Positions 37,329 to 58,883 of a stretch of 64,000 nt of DNA are shown piece by piece. Source of the DNA: an uncultured Chloroflexia bacterium (GTDB lineage: Bacteria > Chloroflexota > Limnocylindria > Limnocylindrales > CSP1-4); contig CAVVYR010000004.1 in the NCBI GenBank assembly GCA_963752475.1, forward strand, positions 192,001 to 256,000, given 5' to 3'. The notes under the pieces are model-generated. The model ran no database searches. It saw nothing but the letters and a program-made list of their open reading frames with translations, and was not told the origin of the DNA. A program made the translations under genes and the position numbers. Positions within the stretch are counted from its first letter, which is position 1. Every line of letters starts with the position of its first letter.

Positions 37329-38734
<1,406 letters not shown>

Positions 38735-38744
38735 GAGGCCATCG

Positions 38745-39629
38745 ATGCCGCTGGCGATGCCCGGTCGGACGAAGGATGCGGTGGTGGTCGTGGCCGCCGA
38801 TTCAGAGTGGCGCTCCGGCGTGGAAGCCTTCCTGCGCGGCGTGGGCGCGGACGACGATCGAGCCAGGTATCACCTCAATGTGCTGGACCAGCGAGCTGCC
38901 GGGCGCATGTCATGGGTCTCGCAGTTCGCCGATCGCACGCTCTCGAACGGGCGACCGATGCCGGCCAGCCGCGCCTATGCCGAGTCGTTGGTGAAGGAAG
39001 GAACGTTGCCGCTCTACGACGCGGACGGCTGGTTCTTCAGCGTGGACCTGCACAATCCCGGCAACGAGGCGGCCGTGCCTTGGTACGACGAGCAGGTCGT
39101 GGAGCTGGCCATCGTGGCCGATGTGGGCGCGTTCCGAGGCGGGTCATACACCGCCGGCGGCGCCGATGCCGCGATGTCCGACCGGGCCGTGCACGGCGCA
39201 CGCCTGGGTGAGCTGGTGGCAGCCTTGGCCGAGTCGACCGAAGCACTGTTCGCCTACGCCGATATCGACTCGACCGGTGCGCGTGTGACCGAGGCCTCGA
39301 AGCCAAGCTCCGTGGTGCATCCAGGGCCCGACACGCTCACCCCGCCCGACTTCCTGTGGTCGATCACCGTCTGGGGCCCGGGGCTGCTCGACGACGAGCT
39401 GGCGTCTCGCCTGGACCGTGTGCAGCTGGAGCCGGCGCATCTCTCGCGCGTCGATCCGCACGTCCGTCCGCACGTGCACCTGGAGCAACGGAGGCTGGAG
39501 TACGGCGGCCGGATGCTGCAGTACCGCTTCCTCTTCGGCTCGGAGCTGCGCAACGAACGCGCACACATCGACACGCCCCTCGCGGAGCAGCTGGGCCTGC
39601 GCTCGACGAACCTGCAGTTCCGGACCTGA
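38745..39629 (+). CDS. Hypothetical protein
   Basis: AGGAGG RBS overlapping the asnS stop; 294-aa ORF with coding-like codon usage. The ORF-track fusion with asnS is a frameshift artefact. Confidence 0.75.
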
Positions 39630-40212: not shown

Positions 40213-42756
40213 CTAGCGGGGTCGGGCCTGCGACTGGATACCACCAGCGCTGAGGACCGGGATGGCCTCGCCCTCGGGCTCCTGCTCGGAGCGCTCGGAA
40301 CGACGGGCGTAGATGACCAGCATCGACGGCAGCACCAGCACCGAGACGAGCGCCGAGCCGACGATCGCGACGAGGGTGAGCCAGCCCAGCTGCTGGAAGG
40401 GGATGAGCGAAGACTGCGTGAGGATGGCGAAGCCGAGGCTGGTGGTGAGCGCCGAGGCCAGCAGCGCGGAGCCGGTGGACTGCAGCGTGCGGGTCACCGC
40501 CACATCGATGCTCCTGCCCTCGCGCAGGAACTCCTGGAAGCGATGCGTGACGTGGATGGTGTAGTCGACGCCGACGCCGATGACGACCGCGGCCAGGGTG
40601 GCCGTGACCGGTCCGAACTCGAAGCCCGCGATGACCATGAAGGCGTACAGGAGGATGACCACGCCACCGACCGGCAGGATGGTCAGCAGGCCGAGCAACG
40701 GGCGGCGGTCAGAGACGAAGTAGTTGAGCATGAGCAGCGCGCCGGCGCCGAGCAGGGCCAGGATGAGGCTCTGGAGCTGGGTGATCGAGGTGGACTCGAC
40801 CACGGCCGCGTCGATGATCTGCGTGGAGGTCGCGATCGACGCCGCCCCGAAGGCAGCCTCGAGAGCAGCGGCCAGACCGAGCGCACCGTCGGAACCGGCC
40901 TGCGTGGTGAAGGTGTAGAGGGAAGCCTCGGGCGTGTAGACCGCGGCCAGCGCCTCGGGGGCGGCGGAACGCACGGTCTCGAGGATGGCGGCCACGTCGG
41001 TGCCGGCCGGAGCCTGGAGGGAGGAGTCGAGGCCGGCAGCCGCGACGGCAGCCGCGACGGTCGGGTCGAACTCCGGCGAGCCCTCGGTCGCCAGCGAGGC
41101 CACGAGGTCGGGCGCGGACTCGACCAGCGGGGCGCCATCGATGGCCACGACATCGTCGAGCTGCCCGGCAGCCGCGGTCGCAGCGACGGCGGCGTTCCAG
41201 ACGGCGGGCTCGGCCAGGTTGCCCTCGACGAGGACGCTGGTGGTCTCGCCGAGGCCGCCATCGAAGCGCTCCTCGAGCTCGACCGCGGCGGCGCGGACGG
41301 CCGCACCCTCCGGCACGAAGTCGAGGAAGCTGAAGCCGGTGCGCAGGTTGGTAGCGGTCAGGGCCGCACCCACCAGCACCAGGCCGGCCAGGCCCACAGC
41401 AGCCCAGGGGGCACGGCGCGGGATGACGGCGGTGGCGCCGGTGAGGCGATCGATCCAGCTGCGGTCGGTGGTGGCGAAGGCCTCTACAGGGAGCTTCTCG
41501 CCCTTCTCGGCGCGGCGGTCCAGCAGCACACGCGCGGCCGGGAAGAGCAGGTTGGCGTAGAGGAAGGCGGCGCCGATGCCGACCGCGGCGAGCACACCGA
41601 AGGTCAGCAGTGCGGTCGAGCCGGCGAAGACGTTGGTCAGGAAGCCGAAGGCGGTCGTCAGCGCCGAGAGCACCAGTGCGCCACCGACGATGCGGCCGCT
41701 GCGGGACATGGCCTTCTCGACCGACTCCCCTGCCCCGAGGCCCTTGCGGTAGGCCGAGTTGAGGTGGATGACGTAGTCGACGCCGAGGCCGACGAGCAGG
41801 ATCGAGACGATGGAGCTGGGTCCGGAGACATTGCCGATGATGCCCAGGCCGTCGGGGCCAAGGAGCACGGCCATGCCGTCGGTGGTCGTGATGGCGAACA
41901 TGACCACGAGCAGGGCCAGCAGCGTGTCAGCGACGGTGCGACGCACGCGCTGGAAGCGGCGCATGGGCGCGGCGGTCCAGAAGACGAAGAGCAGGGCCAG
42001 GCCGATGATGCCGATGGCGCTGAAGAGCAGGAGCGGGATCTCGAAGGCGGACTCTTCGCCCGACTGGAAGATGAGGGAGACGGAGAAGGGAAGGGCGTCC
42101 ACGCCGGCGAAGGAGGCCGACTGGAGGGCGGCATCGAACTCGCCCTGGAGCGACGCCAGCTGCTCGAAGGCGGCGGTGTCCTCGGGGGTCTCGAAGAAGG
42201 CCAGCATGAGGCCCGCGGGAGCGGCTGTGCCCTCCTCGAGGTTGCCCTCGAAGAGACCGTTGAGCAGTTCCGCCTGGGCTGGCGGCGCGAAAGCGAGACC
42301 GGTCTCCAGGAGCGCCTTGACCTCGGCGTCGGTGGTGGGGGCGGGCGCGCCATTGGTGATGGCGAGCTCGACGGGAGACATGAAGGAGGAGATGGCGCCG
42401 ATGCCTGGCTGCTCCACGAGGAAGTCGGTCAGGCGCACGCCGTCCACCTCGACGGCCTGCAGGGTCTCGACGACCGTGTTGGCAGCCTCGAGGCCGGCGG
42501 TGCTGACGATGTCGCCGGACTCTGCGACGAGCACGACCTGCAGCGGCTGTACCGCGGATTCCTCACCGAACAGCGCCTCGATGCGCTCCGAGGCGGTGAT
42601 GGCCGGATCCTCAGGTGCGAACTCGGAGCTGTCGTTCGACATCTCGGGGCGCCCCATGGCGCTGAGCCCGATGGCGACCGCCAGCACCGCGATGATCGCG
42701 AGCCACGGCCGCCGAGTCGTAAAGCGAGCGAGACCGCTCGCGATCCATTCGAACAT
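40213..42756 (-). CDS. MMPL/RND family transporter
   Basis: Two TM-loop-5TM halves; LLVGLGVDYVIH and VIGVGVDYTIHVTHRF; SALTT.GF. Confidence 0.92.
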   Translation of the reverse strand: MFEWIASGLARFTTRRPWLAIIAVLAVAIGLSAMGRPEMSNDSSEFAPEDPAITASERIEALFGEESAVQPLQVVLVAESGDIVSTAGLEAANTVVETLQAVEVDGVRLTDFLVEQPGIGAISSFMSPVELAITNGAPAPTTDAEVKALLETGLAFAPPAQAELLNGLFEGNLEEGTAAPAGLMLAFFETPEDTAAFEQLASLQGEFDAALQSASFAGVDALPFSVSLIFQSGEESAFEIPLLLFSAIGIIGLALLFVFWTAAPMRRFQRVRRTVADTLLALLVVMFAITTTDGMAVLLGPDGLGIIGNVSGPSSIVSILLVGLGVDYVIHLNSAYRKGLGAGESVEKAMSRSGRIVGGALVLSALTTAFGFLTNVFAGSTALLTFGVLAAVGIGAAFLYANLLFPAARVLLDRRAEKGEKLPVEAFATTDRSWIDRLTGATAVIPRRAPWAAVGLAGLVLVGAALTATNLRTGFSFLDFVPEGAAVRAAAVELEERFDGGLGETTSVLVEGNLAEPAVWNAAVAATAAAGQLDDVVAIDGAPLVESAPDLVASLATEGSPEFDPTVAAAVAAAGLDSSLQAPAGTDVAAILETVRSAAPEALAAVYTPEASLYTFTTQAGSDGALGLAAALEAAFGAASIATSTQIIDAAVVESTSITQLQSLILALLGAGALLMLNYFVSDRRPLLGLLTILPVGGVVILLYAFMVIAGFEFGPVTATLAAVVIGVGVDYTIHVTHRFQEFLREGRSIDVAVTRTLQSTGSALLASALTTSLGFAILTQSSLIPFQQLGWLTLVAIVGSALVSVLVLPSMLVIYARRSERSEQEPEGEAIPVLSAGGIQSQARPR

Positions 42757-46719: not shown

Positions 46720-49700
46720 TCAACCGACCTCGGGGAACTCGCGCTCGGCGGTCTTCTGGACGTCCGCGATGGCGGCGAACGAGCCACGCAGCAGCTCACG
46801 CTGCATCGCCGTCAGAGATGACAACTCCACCACGGAGGTCGGCTCACGCCCGGCGCGCACGTCCTCGAGCTGCGCCTGCAGGCGCAGGCCCATGAGGAAG
46901 TCGTAGGCATCGGTGATCTCTTCGAGGCTCCCCGCCGGCAGCAGCTGGCGATCGGCGAGCGCGATGATGCGGTCCATCGTGTGCGTGGCCACGATCCGCT
47001 GCCGCTCGGCGTAGACGCGAGCGAAAGCCACGATCGGCTGCAGCGCGTCCTTGAGATCGAACTTGCCGCTCGACTCGGAAGCCCCACCGAGGTAGATGTT
47101 CCCAGGCAGCCGCAGCGGCGGCCGGAACGAGAGCGCGTTGCGAGCCAGCAGGAACTGCACGCCCCGCTGCTCGGGCAGGGTGGCATGGACGTGCCGCCGC
47201 AACTCGCCGACCAGCGCGGCGTCACCCCGGATGAGCCGGAAGTCGAGGAAGATCGAGAGGTCGGTCAGGTCCTGCGCTTCGGCGTGCCGGAGCCAGGCGT
47301 CGTACGTCTCGATCCAGCTGGCCAGCGAGCGGCACCACTTGGCGTCGCCGGCCATGACCTGCCCGCGACACTCGGGGTAGCCCGCGGTGGCCAGCCCCTC
47401 ACCGACCCGTCGACCGAGCTCGAGGAACCACGACTGCAGCTCGTCCGCATCGGCCTCCTCGGGCAGGTCGTAGACCAACCCGGAGTCCTGGTCGCTGATG
47501 AGGTGGACCTCCCCCCTGCCCTGGCTGCCGAGTGCGAGCCAGGCGAAGGGCGCCGGCGCCGGTCCCATCGCCTCGAGCGCCAGCTCCAGGATCCGCACCG
47601 TGGCGGCATCGAAGACCGAGGTCAGCGTGCTGTTGACCGGGCGCGGCTTGGACGTCGAGCTCAGCAGGGTCGCCGCCAGCGAGACCGTGCGCTCGCACCG
47701 GCGCGCGACCTCCTCGACCGACGAAGCCCGCCCGATGTCCCGGAGTACCACCAGCGGCGCATAGCGCGGTGAGCGGATCAGCGCTTCCTTGTCGACGACG
47801 GCGGTGATGGCACCCGACGCGTCCTCCACCGCCAGATGCTTGACCCCGGCCGTCTCCATGTGCAGCAACGCCTCGTACACCGGCGCGCTCTGCGGCAAGC
47901 GGATGAGCGGTGCGGTCATGACGGTCTCGACCGGGTCGTCGACGGCCTTGCCCGCGGCCACGACGCGCGAGCGGATGTCGTGGTCGGTGACGATGCCGAT
48001 GGGTGCCCCGGAGCCGCTGGCCACGAGCGCTGCCGTGGCCCCGTGCTCGGTCATCGTGGTGGCCACGTCGCCCAGCCGCTCCTCCATGGGCACGACGATG
48101 GGCTCCACGCCCAGGGCCTCGATCGATTCGTGCAGGAAGAGCAACGAGGCCCGCAGCTGCTGGACCTCACGATCGGCCGCGCCGCCACGAGCGGCGGTCA
48201 CGTCAACCAGCAGGCCATCGATCCAGGCCGGCTCGTCCTCTTCATCGCGGATGAGCACGCCCGACAGCAGCACCGACCGCGGGCCTGACGGTGTGTCGAT
48301 GGCCAGGAACTGGTCGCGCACCTCACCCGTATCGAGCAACCGTCGGTAGGCACGCGCGTACTCGTCGGAGCTGGCGAAGCAATCGGCCAGGGCCAGCTGC
48401 CCCCCCTCCTCCACGGCCACCAGCGCGAGCAGCTCCCGCGCGGCCGGACTCAAGTCCACGAACACACCGCGTCTCGCGGCCACCGCCCGGAAGACCCCGA
48501 CCGATGAGCCGATGGCAGAGGCGTCCGAGCGGGCCGTCGCCGCCGCCGTCACGTCGCGGGCCAGCAGGATGTGGCCGGTCTGATCGCCGAACTCGACGGG
48601 CTCCAGCGTCAGCACGCACTCCACCGTCGAACCGTCCGAACGCGTCAGCAGGCCCTCGCGTGCGACGCCCAGCACGGCCGACTCGTGATCACCGTCATCG
48701 AGCAGCTCCCAGAGGGCCTCGTTGCCCTCGCGCGGCAGCACATCGACCGGCTCCAGGAAGTCCAGTTGTCGCGATCCGTATCCGAGCAGCTCGAGGAACG
48801 TGGGGTTGGCATATCGCAGGCGCCCATCGACCACGAGCAATGTGCCCTCCGACGTGGCCTCGACGAGAGCGTGATAGCGCGCGTTCGAGTCTCGCAGCCG
48901 CTCCACGCCCTCCTCGCGCCGACGCTCGATACGCAGCGACTGCTGCAGCACGAAGGCCAGCAGCAGGGCGATGACACCGCTGATGGCGAGGGCGGCCAGG
49001 AGCAGGTTCCGCTCGATGCGCTCGATCTCGGCCTGCACGTCATCGACGTACATGCCCGTGCCGATGACCCAATCCCAAGGCTCGAAGCCCTTGACGTACG
49101 ACTCCTTCGGCTCCAGCCGCTGGACATCGTCGAAGCGCTGGAAGACGTAGCCGACGTAGCCCTCGTCCTGCTCGTCGACGAGCTCCGCGAACTGGACGAA
49201 GATGGGCTCGCCGCGCGGGTCGGTGTAGTCGGAGATGTCCTCGCCCTCGAGGTCCGGCCGATACGGGTGCATGACCATCGTGGGCTCGGCATCCTGGATC
49301 CAGAAGTAGTCGAGCCGGTCCTCCCCGTAACGCAGCTCCGAGACCACGCCGGCGGCCGCCGCCTGCGCCTCCTCGCGGGTGAGGGTGCCGGCCCGTTCGT
49401 CGGCCTCATAGGCGGCGAGCACGCTCCAGGCCGAGTTCGTGAGCTCGCGGATCATCTCCCGCTTGCGCTCGACGAGCGACTCCTCGAACGAGGGCAGGAT
49501 CAGGCCCCAGAAGGCGATGAGGAAGAGCGCCAGCGCGGCCACCGCCGGGAGCACCACGCGCAGGACGAAGGGGCGACGACTGAGGCCTCCGGGGCTCCCC
49601 GGGGGCTCGGCCGAGGCAGGAGCGGCGGGGTCCCCGTCGCCCGGCGAGACCTTCGACGCCAGGCCCGGCCCATCGAGCACGGCCGCGCGGAATCGGACCC

Positions 49701-50394
49701 AGTCCTCGTGGGGCATCTCGATCCCCAGGGCCTCGCTACCGAGCCCGCGAACGGCGTGGTAGTCGGTGCCGCCGCTGACGAGGAGGTCGTGTCTGGCCGC
49801 CAGCGTACGGAGGGCCTCACGCTCCCCGGGCTCGAACTCTTCGTAGACCGCCTCGATACCGTCGAGCCCCTTGGCGCGCAGCTCGAGCACGAAGCGCTCA
49901 AGGTCGGCGATATCGCGTTCGTAGACGAGTGGGTGGGCCAGGAAGACCTTGCCGCCGGCACGGTGCAACAGGTCGATGGCGTCGCCGATCTCGAGACGAC
50001 CGTCAGGAGCGGCGCTGCCGTTCTCGTGGTGGTCGCCGCGGGTGCCCGCCGCCCGGATGGAGCCCTCGATGGACTGGGTGTCGGTCGAGCGATGAGCGCG
50101 GATCGAGGCCAGCGTCGCGGTGAGGTCGGGGTACTCGGGATCGAAGCCGTAGGCCACGAGGTGGATGACCCGCCCATCGTGCTGCGTCGTCAGCTCGATG
50201 CCCGGGAGGGAGGCCACACCTCGCGCGTCGAGCGCGTCACGGAACTCGGGCCAGCCAGCGATCGTGTCGTGGTCGCAGAGCGCCGCGAAGCGCACGCCGG
50301 CTTCGGCCAATCGCTTGGCCAGGGCAGCCGGTGCTAGCGCGCCATCGGAGTGGAGCGTGTGCGCGTGCAGGTTGAGGAAGACGCCGTCAGCCAT
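46720..50394 (-). CDS. PHP phosphoesterase - TM - Cache - TM - PAS - CBS pair - DUF294 nucleotidyltransferase - DUF294_C fusion protein
   Basis: PHP: NLHAHTLHSDG, LCDHDT, GIELT, FLAHP, LDGIE, GGTDYH. Cache: LRYG..DYFWI...MVMHP..P.LEG, KESYVKGFEPWDWVIGTGMY. PAS: YANPTFLELLGY. CBS: GIVTDHDI, VMTAP. NTase: WLALGSQGRGE...SDQDSGL, GYPECRGQVMA, IFLDFR; FDLK..LQPIV.FAR. Confidence 0.9.
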   Translation of the reverse strand: MADGVFLNLHAHTLHSDGALAPAALAKRLAEAGVRFAALCDHDTIAGWPEFRDALDARGVASLPGIELTTQHDGRVIHLVAYGFDPEYPDLTATLASIRAHRSTDTQSIEGSIRAAGTRGDHHENGSAAPDGRLEIGDAIDLLHRAGGKVFLAHPLVYERDIADLERFVLELRAKGLDGIEAVYEEFEPGEREALRTLAARHDLLVSGGTDYHAVRGLGSEALGIEMPHEDWVRFRAAVLDGPGLASKVSPGDGDPAAPASAEPPGSPGGLSRRPFVLRVVLPAVAALALFLIAFWGLILPSFEESLVERKREMIRELTNSAWSVLAAYEADERAGTLTREEAQAAAAGVVSELRYGEDRLDYFWIQDAEPTMVMHPYRPDLEGEDISDYTDPRGEPIFVQFAELVDEQDEGYVGYVFQRFDDVQRLEPKESYVKGFEPWDWVIGTGMYVDDVQAEIERIERNLLLAALAISGVIALLLAFVLQQSLRIERRREEGVERLRDSNARYHALVEATSEGTLLVVDGRLRYANPTFLELLGYGSRQLDFLEPVDVLPREGNEALWELLDDGDHESAVLGVAREGLLTRSDGSTVECVLTLEPVEFGDQTGHILLARDVTAAATARSDASAIGSSVGVFRAVAARRGVFVDLSPAARELLALVAVEEGGQLALADCFASSDEYARAYRRLLDTGEVRDQFLAIDTPSGPRSVLLSGVLIRDEEDEPAWIDGLLVDVTAARGGAADREVQQLRASLLFLHESIEALGVEPIVVPMEERLGDVATTMTEHGATAALVASGSGAPIGIVTDHDIRSRVVAAGKAVDDPVETVMTAPLIRLPQSAPVYEALLHMETAGVKHLAVEDASGAITAVVDKEALIRSPRYAPLVVLRDIGRASSVEEVARRCERTVSLAATLLSSTSKPRPVNSTLTSVFDAATVRILELALEAMGPAPAPFAWLALGSQGRGEVHLISDQDSGLVYDLPEEADADELQSWFLELGRRVGEGLATAGYPECRGQVMAGDAKWCRSLASWIETYDAWLRHAEAQDLTDLSIFLDFRLIRGDAALVGELRRHVHATLPEQRGVQFLLARNALSFRPPLRLPGNIYLGGASESSGKFDLKDALQPIVAFARVYAERQRIVATHTMDRIIALADRQLLPAGSLEEITDAYDFLMGLRLQAQLEDVRAGREPTSVVELSSLTAMQRELLRGSFAAIADVQKTAEREFPEVG

Positions 50395-50469: not shown

Positions 50470-52203
50470 TCAGCGCACACGCACGCGGATGGGCTCGCTG
50501 TCGGCCGGCCAGCGGTCGGTCGTACCGGGATAGCTCACCACGATGTCGTATCGGCCGGGCCCCAGCTCTCGCAGGGAAGCGGCGAAGCGCCCGTCCGCGT
50601 CGGTCGTCACCGTGCGCAGTGACACCGGACGCGTCGCGAACCAGATGTTCTCGCGCTGCGTCTCCTGACCGCTTTGGTCGAAGAAGATGAGTGAGACGTA
50701 GCCCGAACCAAGTGCCTTCGCCGGCACGTCGAGCGTGGCTGCGAACTCGAACCTGGCGCCCGACCGGACCTTGAAGCGCGCGCCGTCGACCATGAGGGTC
50801 TCATGAGGTTTGGCCTTGATGCGCATCGCGGGCCCGTCCTCGTTGGTCACGGCACTGGCCACCCCACTGCCGTAGGACCCCCAGCTGTCGAGGCCGCGCG
50901 AGAAGCGCGCGTTGGGCACCCTGTTCTTGCCCGTGCCCTCCTTGTAGCTGACCTCGGAGATGCGCACATCGACCGGTGATGGCGTTCCGCCCTCGGTGTT
51001 GGCTCGGACCGCGATGAGCGCCTTCCTCGCCGCTTCGGGCACGACACCGCTGAAGCGATGGCGCTGCCTGGCCCTGCCGATGGGCTCAGCCGTCAGGGTG
51101 AGGCGTTCACCGGCCACCGGCAGGTCGGCGGTGGTCGCCATCCGGCCCTCGATGCGCATGGCCTGGATGGCCCGGGCCTTGAGCGCGGTCCGCTCGCCGA
51201 AGTACTGCTTCACGCGTCCGCTCGAGGTGTTCAGGTCGTCGTCCGGGAGGGTCCGGTCGGGCTGGCTGTGCCACGACCACAGGCCGGCCATCTGCGGCGT
51301 CCCGCCATGCACCTGCTCGTACCTCACCGCGTGTGCCATCTGCTGTTCGAGCCACGTGTCGTTCTGCCGCGAGTCCTCGCTGCCCAGGTAGAGCATGCCG
51401 AAGGGGACCCCACGTGCATCGGCGAGGGCTTCGATCGCCATCACGCGCTCCGGCCAGTCCTCGATGCGCCAGTCGACATCGATGTTGAGGAACGCGAGGG
51501 GCTCTCCCGTTCGCGCCTCCCATGTGTCCAGCCAGGTGGCGAAGTCACGCTCGGAGAGGTAGAGATGGCTGACGACCGGCTCGATCGACCCGACCGCGAT
51601 GCCCGGGAAGTACCGCCGCACCTCCCCGACCCAGGCCCAGACCTCATCGACCACCTCCTCTACGGTGTACCCGCAGGCACGGAGGCCAGCGTAGACGTGC
51701 CCGTTGGCGAAGGGCTGGTCGAGGGTGAGGTAGTCGAGCCGCCCACCCAGCCGGTGGATGCGCTCGATCTCGATGAGGTCGTACGGCCCCTCCATCGACT
51801 CCCGGTGGTCGCACACATCAGCGCCCTTCCAGGTCAATGGCTCCACCTCCAGCCCGAGCGGCAACTCGTGCTCGTCCAGCCAGGCGAACAGCTCGCGCAG
51901 CTGCTCGTCGGTCGCGCTGTAGCGGAACATCCAGGCGTGCATATGGAAGGCGTCGATCTGCTGAGCGACCTCCCGCCAGGGCGCATCGTCCGCCCACAGG
52001 TCCCAGTAGTCGTCCGCGCCATCTGGCAACGGGTAGTGGGAGATCTCGTCCGGCAGCGGTGGGACCGGCTGATATGAGACGAACGGCGCGTCCGAGAAGT
52101 CGAGCGCTTCATCCTCCTCCACCTGCGCCACGGCCGGCACCGCGACCGATGAACCGAGCAGGACCGTGGCGACCAGCGCCATGAGCGACCGCGTCTTGAC
52201 CAT
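50470..52203 (-). CDS. Secreted hypothetical protein: TIM-barrel/glycosidase-like N-domain, carbohydrate-binding-like and Ig-like C-domains
   Basis: AAGGAG RBS and signal peptide; LDQPF, VGSIEP, FLNIDVDW, WSWHSQP; NRVPNARFSRGLDSW; TVTTDADGRF...PGRYDIVVSYPG. Confidence 0.7.
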   Translation of the reverse strand: MVKTRSLMALVATVLLGSSVAVPAVAQVEEDEALDFSDAPFVSYQPVPPLPDEISHYPLPDGADDYWDLWADDAPWREVAQQIDAFHMHAWMFRYSATDEQLRELFAWLDEHELPLGLEVEPLTWKGADVCDHRESMEGPYDLIEIERIHRLGGRLDYLTLDQPFANGHVYAGLRACGYTVEEVVDEVWAWVGEVRRYFPGIAVGSIEPVVSHLYLSERDFATWLDTWEARTGEPLAFLNIDVDWRIEDWPERVMAIEALADARGVPFGMLYLGSEDSRQNDTWLEQQMAHAVRYEQVHGGTPQMAGLWSWHSQPDRTLPDDDLNTSSGRVKQYFGERTALKARAIQAMRIEGRMATTADLPVAGERLTLTAEPIGRARQRHRFSGVVPEAARKALIAVRANTEGGTPSPVDVRISEVSYKEGTGKNRVPNARFSRGLDSWGSYGSGVASAVTNEDGPAMRIKAKPHETLMVDGARFKVRSGARFEFAATLDVPAKALGSGYVSLIFFDQSGQETQRENIWFATRPVSLRTVTTDADGRFAASLRELGPGRYDIVVSYPGTTDRWPADSEPIRVRVR

Positions 52204-52295
52204 CGCGCTCTCCTTCGTGCCACGGCCGGGGCGACCGAGGAGCGCCAAACACTAGCGAGCAGGTGCCAGAACGACAACCGGGCGGCCGACCGTCG

Positions 52296-52334: not shown

Positions 52335-52506
52335 GCTCCCAACCGCACCGATGGACCGGAGTGGGCCAGACCGGCCCATCCGGTTCGGGGCCACATGGCC
52401 CTATCAGCGCCCGTCGGCGCAGGCGTTAGGTGGAGTCATCACCGCGCGACACGCAGGCGGCTCGCCGGCCGTCCGTGACGCGGGGTTGATTCGTGAGGGA
52501 GCACGA

Positions 52507-53040
52507 ATGACTACCGTGACGGAGACCACGGACGGGGGGATGGTGGACCAGGATTCCCTCGATCGCATCATCGCTTCACAGGCTGGTCGACCGGGTGCCC
52601 TGCTGGGCATCCTGCAACGGCTCCAGGAACAGAGCCAGAACAAGTACCTGCCGATGGGCACGCTCGAGTACGTGGCCAAGCGCACCGGCATCCCCCAGTC
52701 GCAGGTCTTCTCCGTCGCGTCCTTCTACTCCCTCTTCAACCTCGAACCGCAGGGCGACCACATCGTGGCCATCTGCCGCGGCACGGCCTGCCACACCCGC
52801 GGCTCGCGCCCGCTGCTGCAGCGTGTGAAGCTGCAGCTGGGCCTGCGTGACGCCGGCATCGACGCCGACAAGGTCAGCCTGACCACGCCGGACCTCGGCT
52901 TCACCGTGCGCACGGTGGCTTGCTTCGGACAGTGCGCGCTGGCGCCGGTGGTCGAAGTCGACCACGCCATCCGCGGACACGTCACCGAACAGGCCCTCAT
53001 CCGCGAGGTCGAGACACTCCGAAAGCGAGGCGGCCGATGA
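52507..53040 (+). CDS. hoxE: NuoE/HoxE-like [2Fe-2S] subunit
   Basis: VASFYSLF, ICRGTACH, VACFGQCALAPVV. Confidence 0.9.
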   Translation: MTTVTETTDGGMVDQDSLDRIIASQAGRPGALLGILQRLQEQSQNKYLPMGTLEYVAKRTGIPQSQVFSVASFYSLFNLEPQGDHIVAICRGTACHTRGSRPLLQRVKLQLGLRDAGIDADKVSLTTPDLGFTVRTVACFGQCALAPVVEVDHAIRGHVTEQALIREVETLRKRGGR

Positions 53041-56000
53041 GGATCGCCGATCTCGCCGAGTTCAACGCCGTCCGCGAAACCGGCCTGGCCAAGCTCACGC
53101 CCGATCGTCCGCGCATCGCGGTGGGCATGGGCACCTGCGGGAGCGGGAACGGCGCCGAAGGCGTTCACACCGCCTTCAAGTCGGCCATCGAGGCCCGGGG
53201 CCTGGATATCTCGCTCGCGCCCGTCGGCTGCTTCGGCTTCTGCGCCGAGGAACCCATCGTCAACGTCTGGGTGCCCGGCCAGCCGCTGCTCATGCTGAGG
53301 CGCGTCCAGCCCGAGCACGTCGACCACATCCTGGAGGCCGTCGAGCGCGGCGTGCTCCCGACCGCCGAGCTCATCCTGTGCAAGATCGAGGAGTGGGACC
53401 ATCTCACCGGGCACGTGCGCTACGGCACCGGCTACGAAGACATCCCGTCCTGGGACGAGATCCCCTTCTTCGAGGGCCAGCTGAAGATCGCCCTGCGCAA
53501 CTGCGGCCTCATCAGCCCTGACGACATCGAGGAGTACATCGCGGTCGGCGGCTACCAGGCGCTGTACAAGGTATTGATCGATGACAACCCCGCGGGCGTC
53601 GTGGAGTCGATCAAGGCAGCCAAGCTGCGCGGTCGCGGCGGCGCCGGCTTCCTGACCGGTATCAAGTGGGAGTTCCTGGCCAAGGCCCCGGGCCCGGAGA
53701 AGTACCTCATCTGCAACGCGGACGAGGGCGATCCCGGCGCCTACATGAACCGCAACGAGATCGAGTCGGACCCGCACGCGCTGATCGAGGGCATGGTCAT
53801 CGCGGGCTACGCCACCGGTGCCAGCAACGGCATCATCTATGTCCGCGCCGAGTACCCCATCGCGGTCATGCGCCTGGAGCGCGCAGTGGCTCAGGCTCGG
53901 GCCTACGGCATCGTGGGCACGGACGTCATGGGTCGTGGCTTCGACTTCGACATCCAGATCGTCGAGGGTGCGGGAGCCTTCGTCTGCGGCGAGGAGACCG
54001 CGCTCATCGCCTCGCTCGAGGGCAAGGCCGGCCGGCCTCGGCCGCGTCCGCCGTTCCCGGCCCAGAAGGGCCTCTACGGCAAGCCCACCAACATCAACAA
54101 CGTCGAGACCTGGTACAACGTCGCGCCCATCGTAGCCAAGGGAGCTGCCTGGTTCAGCGACACCGGCTCGGCCAAGAGTGCCGGCACCAAGGTCTTCTCG
54201 CTGGTCGGCAAGGTCAGGAACACGGGCCTCGTCGAGATGCCCCTGGGGACCCCGCTATCCAAGTTCATCTACGACGTCGGCGGCGGCGCCCCGGGTGGAC
54301 GCGAGATCAAGGCCGTGCAGACGGGCGGACCGTCCGGTGGCTGCATCCCGATCGACCTCTTCGACACCCCGGTCGACTACGAGACGCTGGCCCAGCTGGG
54401 CTCGATCATGGGCTCGGGCGGCATGGTCGTGCTGGACGAAGACAACTGCATGGTCGACGTCGCCCGCTACTTCGTGGAGTTCACCCACTCCGAGTCGTGC
54501 GGCAAGTGCGTGCCCTGTCGCGTAGGCCTCGACAAGGCCCTGGCTATGCTCGACGGTTTCACCCACGGCACGGCCACGCTCGAGGACCTCGACGCCCTCG
54601 ACGAGCTCTGTCGCATGACTCGCGACATGAGCCTCTGCGCCCTTGGCGGGAGCGCACCAAACCCGGTGCTCACGAGCCTGCGGCACTTCCGCCACGAGTT
54701 CGAGGACCACGTCCTCGCGAAGCGCTGTCGTGCCGGTGTCTGCGAGGACCTCGCACTCAGCCCGTGCGAGAACTCGTGCCCGCTGCACATGAACATCCCG
54801 CGCTTCCTGCAGTTGTACAAGGAGGATCGACTCGAGGAGGCCTTCCTGTCCGTGGTGCTGGACAACCCGCTGCCGGCCTCGACCGGTCGCGTCTGCCAGC
54901 ATCCTTGTGACGATCGCTGCCGGCGCGAGGCCATCGACGAAGCCGTGAACATGCGCGAGGTCCATCGCGCCATCGCCGACCAGGTCTACCTGACCGACCG
55001 CTTCGAGCCCCTCGTGGCCCGAGTGCTCGAACAGAAGATGCCGGCCAGCGGCAAGCACGTCGCGGTCGTCGGCGCCGGCCCGACCGGCCTCACCTTCGCC
55101 TACTACATGGCCCTGCGCGGCCACGAGGTCACCTGCTTCGACTCTCGGCCGGCCGCCGGCGGCATGCTCCGCTACGCCCTGCCCGAGTACCGCCTGCCAC
55201 AGGCTGTGCTGGACAAGGAGATCGAGCTCATCGAGCGCACCGGTGTCACGTTCCGCTTCGGCGTCGAGGTCGGAAAGGACGTCAGCCTCAACGAGGTCGA
55301 CGAGGAGTTCGACGCCGTGTTCCTTTCGATCGGCACCTGGAAGGAAGCCTGGGTCCACCTCGCCGGAACCGAGTTGACCGGCGTCGTCCCGGCACTCCCC
55401 TTCCTCGAGTCCATGGCCCGCGAGGAGGATGTTCCGGTGGGCCGCAACGTCGTGGTCATCGGTGGCGGCAACGCGGCCGTCGACTCGGCCCGGTCCGCCC
55501 GCCGCCTGGGCGCTGACGTGACCATCGTCTATCGCCGCGAGCGCAAGGACATGCCGGCCATCGAGGAAGAGGTCGTGGCGGCTGAGCACGAGGGCGCGAA
55601 GATCGCCTATCTGCAGGCGCCCAACCGCATCATCGGCAACGCCGAGGGGAAGGTCCGGGCCATCGAGGTCGAGCGCACGCGCCCCGGTGAGTTCGACGAG
55701 TCTGGCCGACGCCGACCGGTCCCGACCGGCGAGATCATGCGCATCGAGTGCGACACCGTGATCCTCGCGGTCGGCGAGCGTGTCGACCCCGACTTCGCCG
55801 ATGCCTCCGGGCTGCGGCTCAACGACGACGAGGAGACCCTCGAGGTCGACCGCTACTCGCTCGAGACCAGCCGTGACCGCTTCTACGCCGGTGGCGACCT
55901 CATCACCGGCGCTTCGAACGTCTCGAACGCCATGGGCATCGGCAAGAAGGCCGCGCGCAACATCGACCGGCGCCTGATGGACCGGCTCACGCCCAGCGTG

Positions 56001-56192
56001 CTGCCCGAGTTCATCTACCAGATGGAGCCACCCGATCCACCCGCGGAGGGCGGCCGCAACACCCCTGCCGAGCTCCCGGCCGACGAGCGGGTCCGCTCGT
56101 ACGCCGAGGTCTCGACCGGGTTCACACCCCAGGTCGCGCTCGACGAGGCGCACCGCTGCCTGCGCTGCGACATCCGCAGTGTCGAGTCCTAG
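53037..56192 (+). CDS. hoxF: NuoF/HoxF diaphorase subunit fused to a GltD/NfnB-like FAD-NAD(P)H oxidoreductase
   Basis: N-terminal thioredoxin-like FeS (GTCG..GCFGFC); LRGRGGAGF, NADEGDPGAYMNR, GAGAFVCGEETAL, GGPSGG, ESCGKCVPCR; then PCENSCP, GRVCQHPC..RC, VVGAGPTG, VIGGGNAA, YRR, AGGD, EAHRCLRC. Confidence 0.92.
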   Translation: MRIADLAEFNAVRETGLAKLTPDRPRIAVGMGTCGSGNGAEGVHTAFKSAIEARGLDISLAPVGCFGFCAEEPIVNVWVPGQPLLMLRRVQPEHVDHILEAVERGVLPTAELILCKIEEWDHLTGHVRYGTGYEDIPSWDEIPFFEGQLKIALRNCGLISPDDIEEYIAVGGYQALYKVLIDDNPAGVVESIKAAKLRGRGGAGFLTGIKWEFLAKAPGPEKYLICNADEGDPGAYMNRNEIESDPHALIEGMVIAGYATGASNGIIYVRAEYPIAVMRLERAVAQARAYGIVGTDVMGRGFDFDIQIVEGAGAFVCGEETALIASLEGKAGRPRPRPPFPAQKGLYGKPTNINNVETWYNVAPIVAKGAAWFSDTGSAKSAGTKVFSLVGKVRNTGLVEMPLGTPLSKFIYDVGGGAPGGREIKAVQTGGPSGGCIPIDLFDTPVDYETLAQLGSIMGSGGMVVLDEDNCMVDVARYFVEFTHSESCGKCVPCRVGLDKALAMLDGFTHGTATLEDLDALDELCRMTRDMSLCALGGSAPNPVLTSLRHFRHEFEDHVLAKRCRAGVCEDLALSPCENSCPLHMNIPRFLQLYKEDRLEEAFLSVVLDNPLPASTGRVCQHPCDDRCRREAIDEAVNMREVHRAIADQVYLTDRFEPLVARVLEQKMPASGKHVAVVGAGPTGLTFAYYMALRGHEVTCFDSRPAAGGMLRYALPEYRLPQAVLDKEIELIERTGVTFRFGVEVGKDVSLNEVDEEFDAVFLSIGTWKEAWVHLAGTELTGVVPALPFLESMAREEDVPVGRNVVVIGGGNAAVDSARSARRLGADVTIVYRRERKDMPAIEEEVVAAEHEGAKIAYLQAPNRIIGNAEGKVRAIEVERTRPGEFDESGRRRPVPTGEIMRIECDTVILAVGERVDPDFADASGLRLNDDEETLEVDRYSLETSRDRFYAGGDLITGASNVSNAMGIGKKAARNIDRRLMDRLTPSVLPEFIYQMEPPDPPAEGGRNTPAELPADERVRSYAEVSTGFTPQVALDEAHRCLRCDIRSVES

Positions 56193-56201
56193 GAGGCCGT
56201 C

Positions 56202-56909
56202 GTGAACGACAAGGTCATGGTCCGTATCGACGGTGAGGTGATCTCGGCCACCGCGGGACAGAGCGTCCTCCAGGTCGCGCGGGAGAACGGCAAGTACATC
56301 CCGTCCCTCTGCTACATGGAGGGGATCTCGCCACAGGGCTCCTGTCGTCTGTGCATGATCGAGGTGCAGGGCGCCAAGAAGCTGCAACCTGCCTGCACGA
56401 CACCGGTGTCGGAAGGCTTGGCGGTGACGACCCACACCGCGCAGCTCGCGGGCTACCGCAAGATGGCCCTGGAGTTGCTCTTCGCCGAACGCAACCACAT
56501 CTGCGCGGTGTGCGTCAGCTCCGGGCACTGCGAGCTGCAGTCGCTGGCGCAGGAGCACGGCATGACCAACACGCGCTTCGACTACAGCTTCCCCAACTAC
56601 ACGCCTGACACCTCGCACCCGCGCTACGTCTTCGACCCCAACCGCTGCGTGCTCTGCGCTCGCTGCGTGCGCACCTGTGCCGAGATCGAGGGCGCACACG
56701 TGTGGGACATCGCCGGACGAGGCGTGGCCTCCGGACCGGTGACGGAGCTGCAACGACCGTGGGGTGAAGCGATGAGCTGTACCAGCTGCGGCAAGTGTGT
56801 CCAGGCCTGTCCGACCGGCGCGCTGGCCGAGAAGGGCTGGGCCGTGGAGGAGATGACCAAGCAGAAGAGCGTCGTGAGCACCCTCGACACCATGCGCAGG
56901 GGCCAGTGA
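56202..56909 (+). CDS. hoxU: HoxU (NuoG N-terminal-like) FeS subunit
   Basis: IPSLC, GSCRLC, PAC, RNHICAVC.SSGHCELQ, RCVLCARCVRTC, CTSCGKCVQACPTGAL. Confidence 0.93.
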   Translation: MNDKVMVRIDGEVISATAGQSVLQVARENGKYIPSLCYMEGISPQGSCRLCMIEVQGAKKLQPACTTPVSEGLAVTTHTAQLAGYRKMALELLFAERNHICAVCVSSGHCELQSLAQEHGMTNTRFDYSFPNYTPDTSHPRYVFDPNRCVLCARCVRTCAEIEGAHVWDIAGRGVASGPVTELQRPWGEAMSCTSCGKCVQACPTGALAEKGWAVEEMTKQKSVVSTLDTMRRGQ

Positions 56910-57451
56910 TGGAACAGGAAGTGCAGAAGGCCACGATCGGGACCTGCTGGCTCGACGGCTGCTCCGGCTGTCACATGTCGCTGCTGGACATGGACGAAGC
57001 CATCGTCGACGTGCTGGCCAAGGCCGACATCGTGTTCGGCCCGCTCGTCGATGCCCAGGAGTGGCCCGAGGGCGTCGACGTCGCGGTCATCGAGGGTGCG
57101 GTGTCGAGCCAGGATGACCTCGATCTCTTGACCGAGGCTCGTGAACGCTCGTCGATCGTGGTGGCTCTGGGCGACTGCGCAGTCACCGGCAACGTGCCCA
57201 CGATGCGCAACGGCATCCCCACGCGCTCGCTGCTCGAACAGATCTACGTCGACTCGGTCGACGAGCAGCCGCAGATCCCCACCGTCGGGGTGCCGCCGCT
57301 GCTCAAGCAGGCAGAGCCGCTCCAGGCCCACGTCAAGGTCGATGTCCACGTGCCGGGCTGCCCGCCCAGTGCCGAGTCGATCCTCTACGTCATCAGTGAG
57401 CTACTGGAGGGCCGCGTGCCCGACCTCGGCTCGAAGCAGCGATTCGGCTAG
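56909..57451 (+). CDS. hoxY: [NiFe] hydrogenase small subunit HoxY
   Basis: WLDGCSGCHMS, IEGAV, ALGDCAVTGNVP, VPGCPP; short single-cluster type. Confidence 0.93.
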   Translation: MEQEVQKATIGTCWLDGCSGCHMSLLDMDEAIVDVLAKADIVFGPLVDAQEWPEGVDVAVIEGAVSSQDDLDLLTEARERSSIVVALGDCAVTGNVPTMRNGIPTRSLLEQIYVDSVDEQPQIPTVGVPPLLKQAEPLQAHVKVDVHVPGCPPSAESILYVISELLEGRVPDLGSKQRFG

Positions 57452-57461
57452 GAGGCCGAGC

Positions 57462-58883
57462 ATGGCGACGATCAACATCCCCCACGTCTCGCGCATCGAG
57501 GGTCATGCCTCCATCACCATCGACCTCGACGAATCCGGGAACGTGGCCGACACGCAGTTCTCGGTCACCCAGATCCGTGGCTTCGAGAAGTTCGTGGCCG
57601 GCCGGCCGTACTACGAGATGCCCTCCATCACCGCGCGCATCTGTGGCATCTGCCCGGTGTCGCACCTGCTGGCCTCGTCCAAGGCGTGTGATGAGATCAT
57701 GGCCGTGCGCGTCCCGCCGACCGCGGCCAAGCTGCGCGAGCTGCTGCACATGGCGCAGATCGTGCAGTCACACGCGCTCTCCTTCTTCCATCTGTCCGCG
57801 CCCGATCTGCTGCTGGGCATGGACTACGACCCCAAGCTGCGCAACGTGGCCGGGCTGCTGGCCAAGCACCCGGCGGTGGTGCAGGACGGCGTGCGGCTAC
57901 GGAAGTTCGGCCAGCAGGTCATCGAACGCCTGGGTCGCGAGCGCGTGCATCCCTCGTGGACCGTGCCCGGTGGCGTGAACTCCGAGCTCGATCCCCAGGC
58001 TCGCGAGAAGACCCTCGAGGAATGGGACGAAGCGCTGGACATCGTGCAGCGCACCCTGGAGCTGTGGAAGGGCACCATCAATTCCTTCCCCGAGGAGGTC
58101 GCCACCTTCTCGAACTTCCCCTCGATGTTCTGCGGCACGGTCTCGCCCGATGGCGATCTCGAGCTGTACGACGGGACGCTGCGCTTCCGTGACGCGGCCG
58201 GCGAGATCGTGGCCGACCACATCGAAGCGGCCGACTACGCCACCTACATCGGCGAAGCGACGATGCGGGACTCGTACCTGAAGGCGCCGTACTACAAGCC
58301 GTTGGGCCTCGATGAAGGCGTCTACCGCGTGGGGCCGATGGCGCGCCTCAACGTCTGCGACCGGATCTCGACACCCCTGGCCGATGCCGAGCTGCAGGAG
58401 CTGCGCCAGCGGCTAGGCCGCGTGGTGCCGAGCAGCTTCCACAATCACTACGCCCGGCTCATCGAAGCCCTCTACGGGCTGGAGCGCATGAAGCAGCTGC
58501 TCGAAGATCCCAGGATCCTCGACACCAAGGTGCGCGCACACGCCGGGGTCAACGACCTCGAGGGCGTGGGCATCATCGAGGCTCCTCGAGGCACGCTCAT
58601 CCACCACTACAAGGTCAATGACGACGGGGCCATGACCTGGGCCAACCTCATCGTCGCGACCGGGCACAACAACCTGGCCATCCGACGGGGCGTGCACGAC
58701 GTGGCCACTCACTTCATCGACGGCAAGGAGATCCGGGAGGGCGCGGTCAACCGCGTCTCGGCCATCGTCCGCGCCTTCGACCCGTGCCTCTCGTGCTCGA
58801 CACACCAACTGGGACAGGCCGCCATCGTGATGACGCTGCGGGGCCCCGACGGTGAGGTCCTCGACGAAAAGGGCACCGTCTAG
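57462..58883 (+). CDS. hoxH: [NiFe] hydrogenase large subunit HoxH (group 3d-like)
   Basis: SRIEGH, RGFEKF, L1 [21 protein letters not shown]2 [10 protein letters not shown] plus a 25-aa cleavable tail. Confidence 0.95.

Follow-up and report, generated by a model that had tools for sequence, protein, structure and literature searches.

Enzymes of the DUF294 family (COG2905) are widespread and belong to the acetate regulons of bacteria that have been studied in detail, and their substrate has not been known for more than 20 years. In the canonical form, a cyclic nucleoside monophosphate (cNMP)-binding domain, a CBS pair, a DUF294 nucleotidyltransferase (NTase) and a DUF294_C domain are combined in one protein, which is encoded beside an RNase_T/DnaQ-like exonuclease. 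Such genes occur within or next to acetate-permease loci. Examples are Pflu5625 of Pseudomonas fluorescens and the PA3232–PA3235 genes of Pseudomonas aeruginosa, among which we take PA3233/PA3232 to be the cNMP–CBS–DUF294 protein with its exonuclease. Pflu5625, described as a cAMP-binding/CBS/NTase protein, has been assigned to the CrbS/R acetate regulon (PMC5715377), the PA3232–PA3235 ActP cluster is reported to be up-regulated about 16-fold on propionate (PMC9765439), and COG2905 proteins showed cofitness with a DUF4212–SSS symporter, for whose expression they were speculated to be needed (Price et al., 10.1101/072470). Here we describe a related gene from an uncultured bacterium of the Chloroflexota (Limnocylindrales), located at positions 46720..50394 on the minus strand of a 64,000-nucleotide stretch (hereafter, the window; assembly GCA_963752475.1, contig CAVVYR010000004.1, positions 192,001 to 256,000). 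The encoded protein is a predicted two-pass membrane receptor in which the NTase is joined to a PHP phosphoesterase domain and a Cache sensor. Its features, in the order of the protein (aa, amino acid residues; TM, transmembrane segment), are as follows.

46720..50394, minus strand: whole gene, 1224 codons plus stop, ATG start; full-length homologues exist
49660..50394, minus strand: PHP phosphoesterase domain, aa 1-245, N-terminal, predicted cytoplasmic; RNase AM/TrpH-like, with a shortened insertion subdomain
49570..49659, minus strand: Pro/Gly/Ala-rich linker between PHP and TM1, aa 246-275 (sequence, alignment consensus and model confidence)
49492..49569, minus strand: TM1, aa ~276-301 (hydropathy scan)
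49009..49485, minus strand: sCache_2 sensor, aa 304-462, predicted extracytoplasmic (Pfam and solved-structure matches)
48937..49005, minus strand: TM2, aa ~464-486, with Arg-rich sequence after it (hydropathy scan)
48535..48882, minus strand: PAS domain 1, aa 505-620 (Pfam, NCBIfam)
48187..48486, minus strand: PAS domain 2, aa 637-736 (Pfam)
47749..48105, minus strand: CBS pair, aa 764-882 (Pfam; CBS-pair structures at Z 13-18)
47278..47685, minus strand: DUF294 nucleotidyltransferase core, aa 904-1039 (Pfam; GlnE/DrrA fold)
46735..47151, minus strand: DUF294_C helical domain, a GlnE/GlnD-type C-terminal domain, aa 1082-1220 (Pfam; GlnE/DrrA alignments)

It is practically certain that this is a real gene with the architecture PHP–TM–sCache_2–TM–PAS–PAS–CBS–DUF294–DUF294_C. 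The frame reads through 46720..50394 without internal stops, and Pfam matches were obtained for PHP (aa 9-79, 29.4 bits against a cut-off of 26.4), sCache_2 (aa 309-462, 128.5 bits), PAS_4 in the second PAS region (aa 637-736), DUF294 (PF03445, 127.3 bits, cut-off 21) and DUF294_C (PF10335, 118.7 bits, cut-off 22.5). The catalytic motifs are present in both enzyme domains (H10-A-H12, D41-H42-D43, E67, H78/H154 and D211-Y-H213 in PHP; G956-S957...E962...D968-Q-D970 in the NTase). A hydropathy scan found exactly two hydrophobic segments, one on either side of the Cache domain; Arg-rich sequence precedes the first segment and follows the second. As in sCache_2 chemoreceptors, the sensor is predicted to face outwards, and PHP and the PAS–CBS–NTase arm to lie in the cytoplasm. 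An initial annotation of this DNA had proposed a single frame of 1224 residues with this domain order (taking in the CBS pair), intact PHP and NTase motifs, and two TMs that place both enzymes on the same side of the membrane; the translation, the Pfam matches and the position of the Cache domain between the two segments agree with it on each of these points. No sigma-70-like promoter or terminator was found beside the gene in a simple scan.

The fusion is not peculiar to this contig. A scan covering one genome per prokaryotic species gave 579 confirmed stretches, and among the best 80 loci, which were retained, 66 contained a single open reading frame (ORF) of 1194-1317 aa with the same layout. 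Nine matches were truncated by a contig end (L055, L065, L078, L081, L082, L096, L098, L102 and L106; L096 was nevertheless counted among the 66, its remaining ORF being 1194 aa), the ORF was shorter or interrupted in five (L036, L064, L067, L072 and L111), and the open frame was longer in L080. A frameshift or stop dividing PHP from the receptor, a break that the initial annotation had considered, is absent both from 46720..50394 and from 66 of the 80 related loci. On several contigs of metagenome-assembled genomes (MAGs), the receptor gene lies in two pieces with the PHP part apart (L036, L064, L067, L072, L111; P0125; P0127 with P0023). In a protein database clustered at 90%, 244 matches were found among 8000 scored candidates; the 120 clusters listed of these were 939-1277 aa long, ranged from 87% down to 47% identity at ~100% coverage, and contained DUF294 in 120 of 120 and PHP in 114 of 120 cases. 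Most record titles among the best 80 loci were from Chloroflexota (Limnocylindrales, Anaerolineae, Ktedonobacterales and Thermoflexales), and others, at 36-44% identity, were from Armatimonadota, Omnitrophota, Lentisphaerales, Kiritimatiellia, Verrucomicrobia, NC10, Sumerlaeota, Acidobacteriota, Spirochaetaceae and delta-proteobacterial MAGs, so that about ten phylum or class labels beyond Chloroflexota carry fusion loci. Carriers are unevenly distributed: among 401 evenly sampled genomes of the same phylum, just the source genome and one other (G061, 53% identity) had the full-length form. The source genome has no second DUF294 gene. The architecture is neither rare nor unique, since many phyla carry it and split and alternative-partner forms exist as well; the statement of the initial annotation that it knew of no characterised protein with this architecture still holds, as none turned up in literature searches. 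The system is thus of a known but uncharacterised kind, of whose PHP-fused receptor form we found no published characterisation.

Loci that carry different hydrolases were compared to see how PHP relates to the NTase. In canonical cNMP–CBS–DUF294 loci of the same phylum, an RNase_T gene lies immediately downstream in four of six cases, and SSS symporter or acetyl-CoA synthetase genes adjoin three of them. A family search of the neighbouring ORFs in the window found no DEDDh gene beside the receptor gene, and when the exonucleases of the four canonical loci were used as tblastn queries, none of 81 fusion loci, the window included, gave a match; the single RNase_T match of the source genome lies inside a 909-aa frame on another contig. 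Furthermore, an exhaustive search of 1.84 billion representative proteins with aa 1-500 as the query returned about 80 entries matching PHP and Cache jointly, followed by many proteins of ~957-975 aa that start at TM1. All seven of the latter that were checked had the sCache_2–PAS–PAS–CBS–DUF294–DUF294_C layout and no PHP. In two further proteins, RNase_T occupies the PHP position: P0368 (1070 aa) carries it at residues 24-207 before the same receptor layout, and the metagenome locus L173:1872-5444 (1191 aa) has it fused at the N-terminus. These observations bear out the suggestion of the initial annotation that PHP substitutes for the exonuclease partner.

A scan of metagenomes with 16 PHP-less receptors as queries yielded 80 loci, which were classified by partner. 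PHP was fused to the receptor in 12 and encoded by an ORF just upstream in three (separate in L143 and L201, overlapping the receptor start in L139); the separate PHP genes of L143 and L201 are 32% identical to the fused PHP studied here. RNase_T was fused in one locus (L173) and encoded upstream in two (L135 and L176), and a gene for a calcineurin-like phosphoesterase of ~250 aa was adjacent in 43, seven representatives of which were confirmed with Pfam. In six loci (L136, L145, L163, L205, L207 and L209), a gene for an AP_endonuc_2/xylose-isomerase-like TIM-barrel protein of 271-301 aa takes the place of the phosphoesterase neighbour, directly downstream on the opposite strand. Its closest solved relative is the uncharacterised MJ1311, with weak matches to sugar epimerases, and it may not be a phosphoesterase; these loci were counted apart. 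On a FastTree tree of the last 470 residues of 129 receptors, the partner type changed at least seven times, compared with ~45 times when the labels were shuffled; because relatives share labels, this describes a few switches only. A search for other outputs on the PHP–Cache module returned only pieces of family members, followed by free-standing TrpH-like proteins with no more than 35% identity, and the one Cache hybrid histidine kinase checked (P0364) contained no PHP. A RecJ gene beside the canonical-type locus L117 was not counted as a partner, as its role is probably housekeeping. That PHP, RNase_T and calcineurin-like enzymes replace one another indicates that the NTase is almost always accompanied by an enzyme that cleaves phosphoesters and whose fold can vary, and PHP is one version of this enzyme. 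PHP is likely to be functionally equivalent to the DEDDh and metallophosphoesterase partners, and there is a precedent for such equivalence in RNase AM, which is reported to be able to stand in for the DEDDh enzyme Orn as a diribonuclease (PMC11528712). The interchangeability of the partners also supports a coupled cycle of addition and removal.

The PHP domain appears to have kept its catalytic machinery within a remodelled substrate pocket, as judged from its sequence. Its NCBIfam TrpH-type match spans aa 7-215, extending beyond the shorter Pfam match, and the nine ligands of the trinuclear metal site are complete (H10, H12, D17, H42, E67, H78, H154, D211 and H213, aligned with H13, H15, D20, H45, E72, H83, H198, D255 and H257 of RNase AM). 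These ligands, whose retention in this protein the initial annotation had pointed out, are kept in 65-66 of the 66 full-length homologue ORFs. The predicted model of aa 1-262 (mean predicted local distance difference test score [pLDDT] 91.0) was closest to Vibrio cholerae RNase AM (9etk, Z 26.8) and to a PHP protein of Bifidobacterium adolescentis (3o0f, Z 26.4), followed at a distance by polymerase PHP domains (Z 14-17) and the PHP-fold tyrosine phosphatases Cps4B (Z 9.7) and YwqE (Z 9.4). The last two provide a precedent for protein-directed activity of the PHP fold. In RNase AM, R201 and a 5'-phosphate pocket formed by R107, R110 and R141 with F161 have been named in addition to the metal ligands (PMC9410882). 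Most of this pocket is missing here: R102 alone corresponds to R107, D105 stands at the position of R110 and V157 at that of R201, and the insertion subdomain that bears R141 and F161 is reduced from ~57 to ~18 residues. The best NCBIfam models were the 3',5'-nucleoside bisphosphate phosphatase (119.5 bits, cut-off 400) and RNase RNM (107.4 bits, cut-off 375), and the domain falls far short of both equivalog cut-offs. The linker at aa 246-275 has no majority consensus across the family, and from residue 250 onwards the pLDDT is down to 66. A flexible tether is therefore probable, and the arrangement suggests that the hydrolase is anchored but not allosterically controlled.

In the NTase half, G956, S957, E962, D968 and the third carboxylate D1051, which sits just past the Pfam DUF294 match, are present in 66 of the 66 homologues, and D970 in 65. 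The GS...E...DQD motif, which the initial annotation had called intact, is thus retained across the family. With the residues of both PHP and the NTase conserved in 65-66 of 66 homologues, both catalytic centres appear to be under selection as enzymes. For aa 740-1224, a model based on 64 sequences (pLDDT 86.8) was compared with 48,161 solved chains. The closest matches of the predicted aa 874-1221 region were the two NTase domains of GlnE (1v4a, Z 26.2, root-mean-square deviation 3.3 Å over 317 aligned residues; 3k7d, Z 25.8), together with DrrA in its AMPylation domain (6yx5, Z 25.1); CBS pairs came next in the ranking (Z ≤ 17.7), and Foldseek was concordant. By sequence, the protein is not a member of the GlnE or GlnD families, scoring 13 bits with Pfam GlnE (cut-off 24), 14.2 with GlnD_UR_UTase (cut-off 21) and 18.6 with NCBIfam PRK14109 (cut-off 625). 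GlnE and DrrA add AMP to, or remove it from, protein tyrosines, and nucleotidylylation of a protein is therefore ranked first among the possible reactions; judged by this model, the modified substrate would be a protein, a proposal to which we give somewhat less than an even chance. DUF294_C itself has been placed with the C-terminal domains of GlnD and GlnE (PMC3710099).

The initial annotation had also remarked that Cache ligands are often carboxylates, and a Cache domain of the carboxylate-binding type was supported by its matches to the solved sensors 5g4y (E 1.8e-31) and 4k08 (E 3.5e-29). The first of these, PscD, binds glycolate, acetate, propionate and pyruvate through Y90, H103, Y143 and K156, in a pocket lined by W92, W145 and F126 (Brewster et al. 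2016, PMC5062169). The seven contact positions Y90, W92, H103, F126, Y143, W145 and K156 align with Y363, W365, H376, F399, Y416, F418 and K430 of the receptor; all seven are thus matched, six are identical, and six are invariant in 66 of 66 homologues. At position 418, which corresponds to W145, 65 of 66 homologues have W, and the receptor studied and one homologue have F. This correspondence of the pockets suggests a short monocarboxylate as the ligand, and the receptor probably senses a carboxylate of this kind (acetate, glycolate, propionate or pyruvate).

Upstream genes of the relatives were counted in the 68 of the 80 loci that had more than 2300 nucleotides (nt) of upstream sequence, after clustering of the ORFs. 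In 56 of the 68, the gene immediately upstream, in the same orientation and mostly at a distance of 3-230 nt, encodes an SSS symporter of ~631 aa, and in 49 of the 68 this gene is preceded by one for a DUF485 protein of ~100 aa. The symporter belongs to the SSF family; its best NCBIfam models were MctC (431 bits) and ActP (382 bits), both scores being under the cut-off. An insert of ~150 residues divides the SSF/ActP match at about residues 195-355 in L046:6103-7998, L071:2337-4238, L101:6056-7954 and their relatives, and is a candidate contact or target site; the ActP-like gene of the source genome encodes 555 aa and may be without it. The DUF485–symporter pair is missing in the source clade (L033, L035, L036, L037, L064, L067 and the window) and in six Armatimonadota, Kiritimatiellia or Sumerlaeota loci, and the only ActP-like gene of the source genome sits on another contig. 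In 24 of the 80 metagenome loci (L145:1271-2488, L150:5348-6565, L207:2201-3433 and others), we also observed a conserved protein of ~405-411 aa without a Pfam match, often just ahead of a DUF4212-containing protein and an SSS symporter.

The mechanism that we infer from these data, including the ligand, the direction of signalling, the protein substrate, the role of PHP as an eraser and the transporter as target, is as follows. The outward-facing sCache_2 domain of a two-pass membrane receptor would bind a short monocarboxylate (acetate, glycolate, propionate or pyruvate), and the signal would pass through TM2, the two PAS domains and the CBS pair, which probably binds adenine nucleotides, to the GlnE/DrrA-type NTase. 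The NTase would most likely transfer a nucleoside monophosphate (NMP) onto a hydroxyl of a target protein, and PHP, on its flexible linker before TM1, would be the built-in hydrolase that removes it. A ligand-regulated writer would thus be opposed by a constitutively tethered eraser. Since the module stands in an operon with DUF485 and an ActP/MctC-like symporter in most relatives, the output is likely to be control of monocarboxylate uptake or use. The complete protein-modification version, in which a receptor-gated, GlnE-like transfer is reversed by PHP, is a tentative proposal, and we judge that it may just as well fail as hold, with failure slightly favoured. The broader idea, that an extracellular-ligand-gated cycle of protein nucleotidylylation directly switches a monocarboxylate symporter or its partner according to external acetate and internal adenylate charge, is speculative and at present doubtful. 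Equally doubtful is the view that such a cycle, with a GlnE-like writer and a tethered or adjacent PHP, DEDDh or calcineurin-like eraser, constitutes a form of transmembrane signalling distinct from kinases, cyclases and chemoreceptors. The initial annotation had described a self-contained bifunctional switch. What stands of that description is the genuine fusion, the arrangement in the membrane, the carboxylate input and PHP in place of the exonuclease; the architecture proved to be widespread, and a link to the nearby hydrogenase operon was not borne out.

Several observations weigh against this mechanism. The ActP-type operon is absent from the window and from the closest relatives, and none of the 23 sampled genomes of the source genome's own family has a match at E ≤ 1e-50. 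No hydrolase was seen in 13 of the 80 receptor loci, nine of which are without flanking sequence on one side, and four of the eight non-receptor DUF294 loci inspected are without an adjacent RNase_T gene (L117, L118, L133 and L134). Because the RNase AM pocket is not kept, the substrate of PHP cannot be read from homology. Deletion of the canonical homologue pflu5625 is reported to have hardly affected growth on acetate (PMC5715377), and the literature searched, supplementary files aside, held no biochemical datum for any DUF294 enzyme. Finally, RNase AM and the DEDDh exonucleases are described as acting on nucleic acids and short oligoribonucleotides (PMC11528712; PMC9410882), which favours RNA or an oligonucleotide over a protein as the substrate.

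This last point leads to an alternative in which the receptor acts on RNA or short oligonucleotides, with the NTase extending a 3' end (for example that of an operon transcript, small RNA or tRNA) or building a short oligomer, and the partner trimming the product. The partners with known relatives are indeed nucleases: RNase_T is a family of 3'-5' exonucleases, and the nearest relative of PHP is RNase AM, which acts as a 5'-3' exoribonuclease and as a diribonuclease (PMC11528712). However, the closest solved folds of the NTase half all belong to protein-(de)AMPylating enzymes (GlnE and DrrA, Z 25-26), no RNA-binding domain was detected with Pfam or NCBIfam, the 5'-phosphate pocket of RNase AM is lost, and Rfam identified no RNA family in the window. 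We consider action on RNA unlikely; if it did occur, it would amount to post-transcriptional control of the symporter operon.

A small nucleotide signal, which the initial annotation had also suggested, would be a second kind of product: the NTase could make a linear or cyclic dinucleotide, or an NMP–metabolite adduct of the acyl-adenylate type, and the hydrolase could degrade it, in the manner of GGDEF and EAL domains. Some calcineurin-like phosphoesterases and DEDDh enzymes (Orn) hydrolyse small nucleotides or dinucleotides, as RNase AM also does (PMC11528712), and the diversity of the hydrolase folds resembles that of second-messenger phosphodiesterases. Against such a signal, no conserved effector or receptor gene is found in the loci, in which only the symporter, DUF485/DUF4212 and the hydrolase recur. 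Moreover, we know of no GlnE/DrrA-type NTase that makes a free messenger, and we regard this product as quite unlikely.

It is also conceivable that PHP is unrelated to the NTase, being a housekeeping phosphatase of 3'-phosphoadenosine 5'-phosphate (pAp) or a nanoRNase attached by chance, or a degenerate ligand-binding module. The identity of its two top NCBIfam models and the apparent flexibility of the linker, across which Cache need not regulate PHP, would fit such a passenger, but its scores are well under the equivalog cut-offs, and the fusion and all metal ligands are kept down to 36% identity under many phylum labels. In sister lineages, other hydrolases fill the same position or an adjacent gene, and separate PHP genes stand directly before PHP-less receptors in L143 and L201. 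An unrelated PHP is accordingly very improbable. Mis-assembly or read-through of two genes, for which only the split copies on a few related MAG contigs speak, is hardly credible and was rejected in view of the unbroken frame in 46720..50394, the same single ORF in 66 of 80 independent loci, and the PHP (114 of 120) and DUF294 (120 of 120) domains of the listed protein clusters of ~1200 aa.

Returning to the window itself, the other genes around the receptor gene are as follows.

37329-39629, plus strand: 766-aa frame; matches to an OB anticodon-binding domain and to a class II (D/K/N) tRNA-synthetase core are confined to residues 21-286, and no domain was assigned to the long remainder
40213-42756, minus strand: MMPL/RND-type transporter, 4 kb downstream of the receptor gene on the same strand
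50470-52248, minus strand: secreted 592-aa protein, 75 nt upstream of the receptor gene, with weak C-terminal Ig-like/CarboxypepD_reg matches
52351..53040, plus strand: NuoE-like 2Fe-2S protein
52920..56192, plus strand: 1090-aa frame, in which NuoF-like FMN and 4Fe-4S domains are joined to GltD-like Fer4_20 and Pyr_redox_2 domains
56202..56909, plus strand: NuoG-like Fe-S protein
57141..58883, plus strand: NiFe large subunit

The 592-aa secreted protein is shared with L033 at 57% identity. An MMPL/RND-type transporter gene directly follows the receptor gene in L033 (11800-14364), L035 (11756-14377) and L037 (11550-13345); in the window, small genes for lipoprotein-like, SRPBCC, PRC-barrel and MFS proteins lie between the two. 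The hydrogenase-type genes begin at 52351, about 2 kb upstream, as the initial annotation had stated, but they are not conserved neighbours: the NuoE/NuoF/NuoG-like and NiFe genes are not among the recurring neighbour clusters of the relatives, in which the symporter pair recurs instead, and a link to the hydrogenase was therefore rejected.

The receptor forms are informative about the whole family. They predict a short monocarboxylate as the input ligand of a DUF294 system, they place the writer and a hydrolase on one polypeptide, and the exchange among PHP, RNase_T and calcineurin-like enzymes shows that the system includes an activity that cleaves phosphodiesters. Candidate targets are the co-transcribed DUF485 and ActP-like proteins. 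Should protein nucleotidylylation prove to be the reaction, transmembrane signalling in bacteria would gain a new type of output, together with a new family of de-AMPylases or de-UMPylases; should RNA or a small nucleotide be the substrate instead, a new membrane-controlled tailing/trimming or messenger system would result.

The systems with which the receptor can be compared each share one of its parts. The canonical COG2905 proteins have the same CBS–DUF294–DUF294_C output, at 29-34% identity over aa ~750-1220, and, like the receptor family, are linked to DUF485/ActP-type or other SSS symporters and to acetyl-CoA synthetase genes, are paired with a hydrolase and are biochemically uncharacterised. 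In the receptor, their cNMP-binding input is replaced by TM–sCache_2–TM–PAS–PAS, and no Pfam match to the cNMP-binding domain (PF00027), which the canonical relatives possess, was found; likewise, the separate DEDDh gene gives way to the N-terminal PHP fusion. GlnE, GlnD and Legionella DrrA/SidM have in common with the NTase half the fold of the NTase core and C-terminal helical domain and the G-S...D-x-D motif, with a sequence identity of only 12-16% for GlnE and DrrA. By combining its adenylyltransferase (AT) and adenylyl-removing (AR) activities, GlnE pairs an adding activity with a removing one, as GlnD does with its NTase and HD domains, and the receptor may be likened to them in this logic; unlike them, it has neither a second NTase domain nor an HD domain, and its input domains are different. 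The sensors of PscD (5G4Y/5G4Z), Adeh_3718 (4K08) and McpP share the sCache_2 domain of ~150 residues, but the output of those chemoreceptors is an MCP signalling domain, whereas that of the receptor is PAS–PAS–CBS–NTase, and its ligand is a prediction from sequence. RNase AM (YciV/TrpH), the 3',5'-nucleoside bisphosphate phosphatase Cv1693 and the B. adolescentis PHP protein (3e0f/3o0f) share the (beta/alpha)7 barrel and nine metal ligands of PHP, with sequence matches at E 1e-26 to 2e-22. In contrast to RNase AM and Cv1693, the PHP domain described here has a short insertion subdomain, retains one of the three pocket arginines, has lost R201 and lies far under the NCBIfam equivalog cut-offs, and it is tethered to the membrane as part of a receptor.

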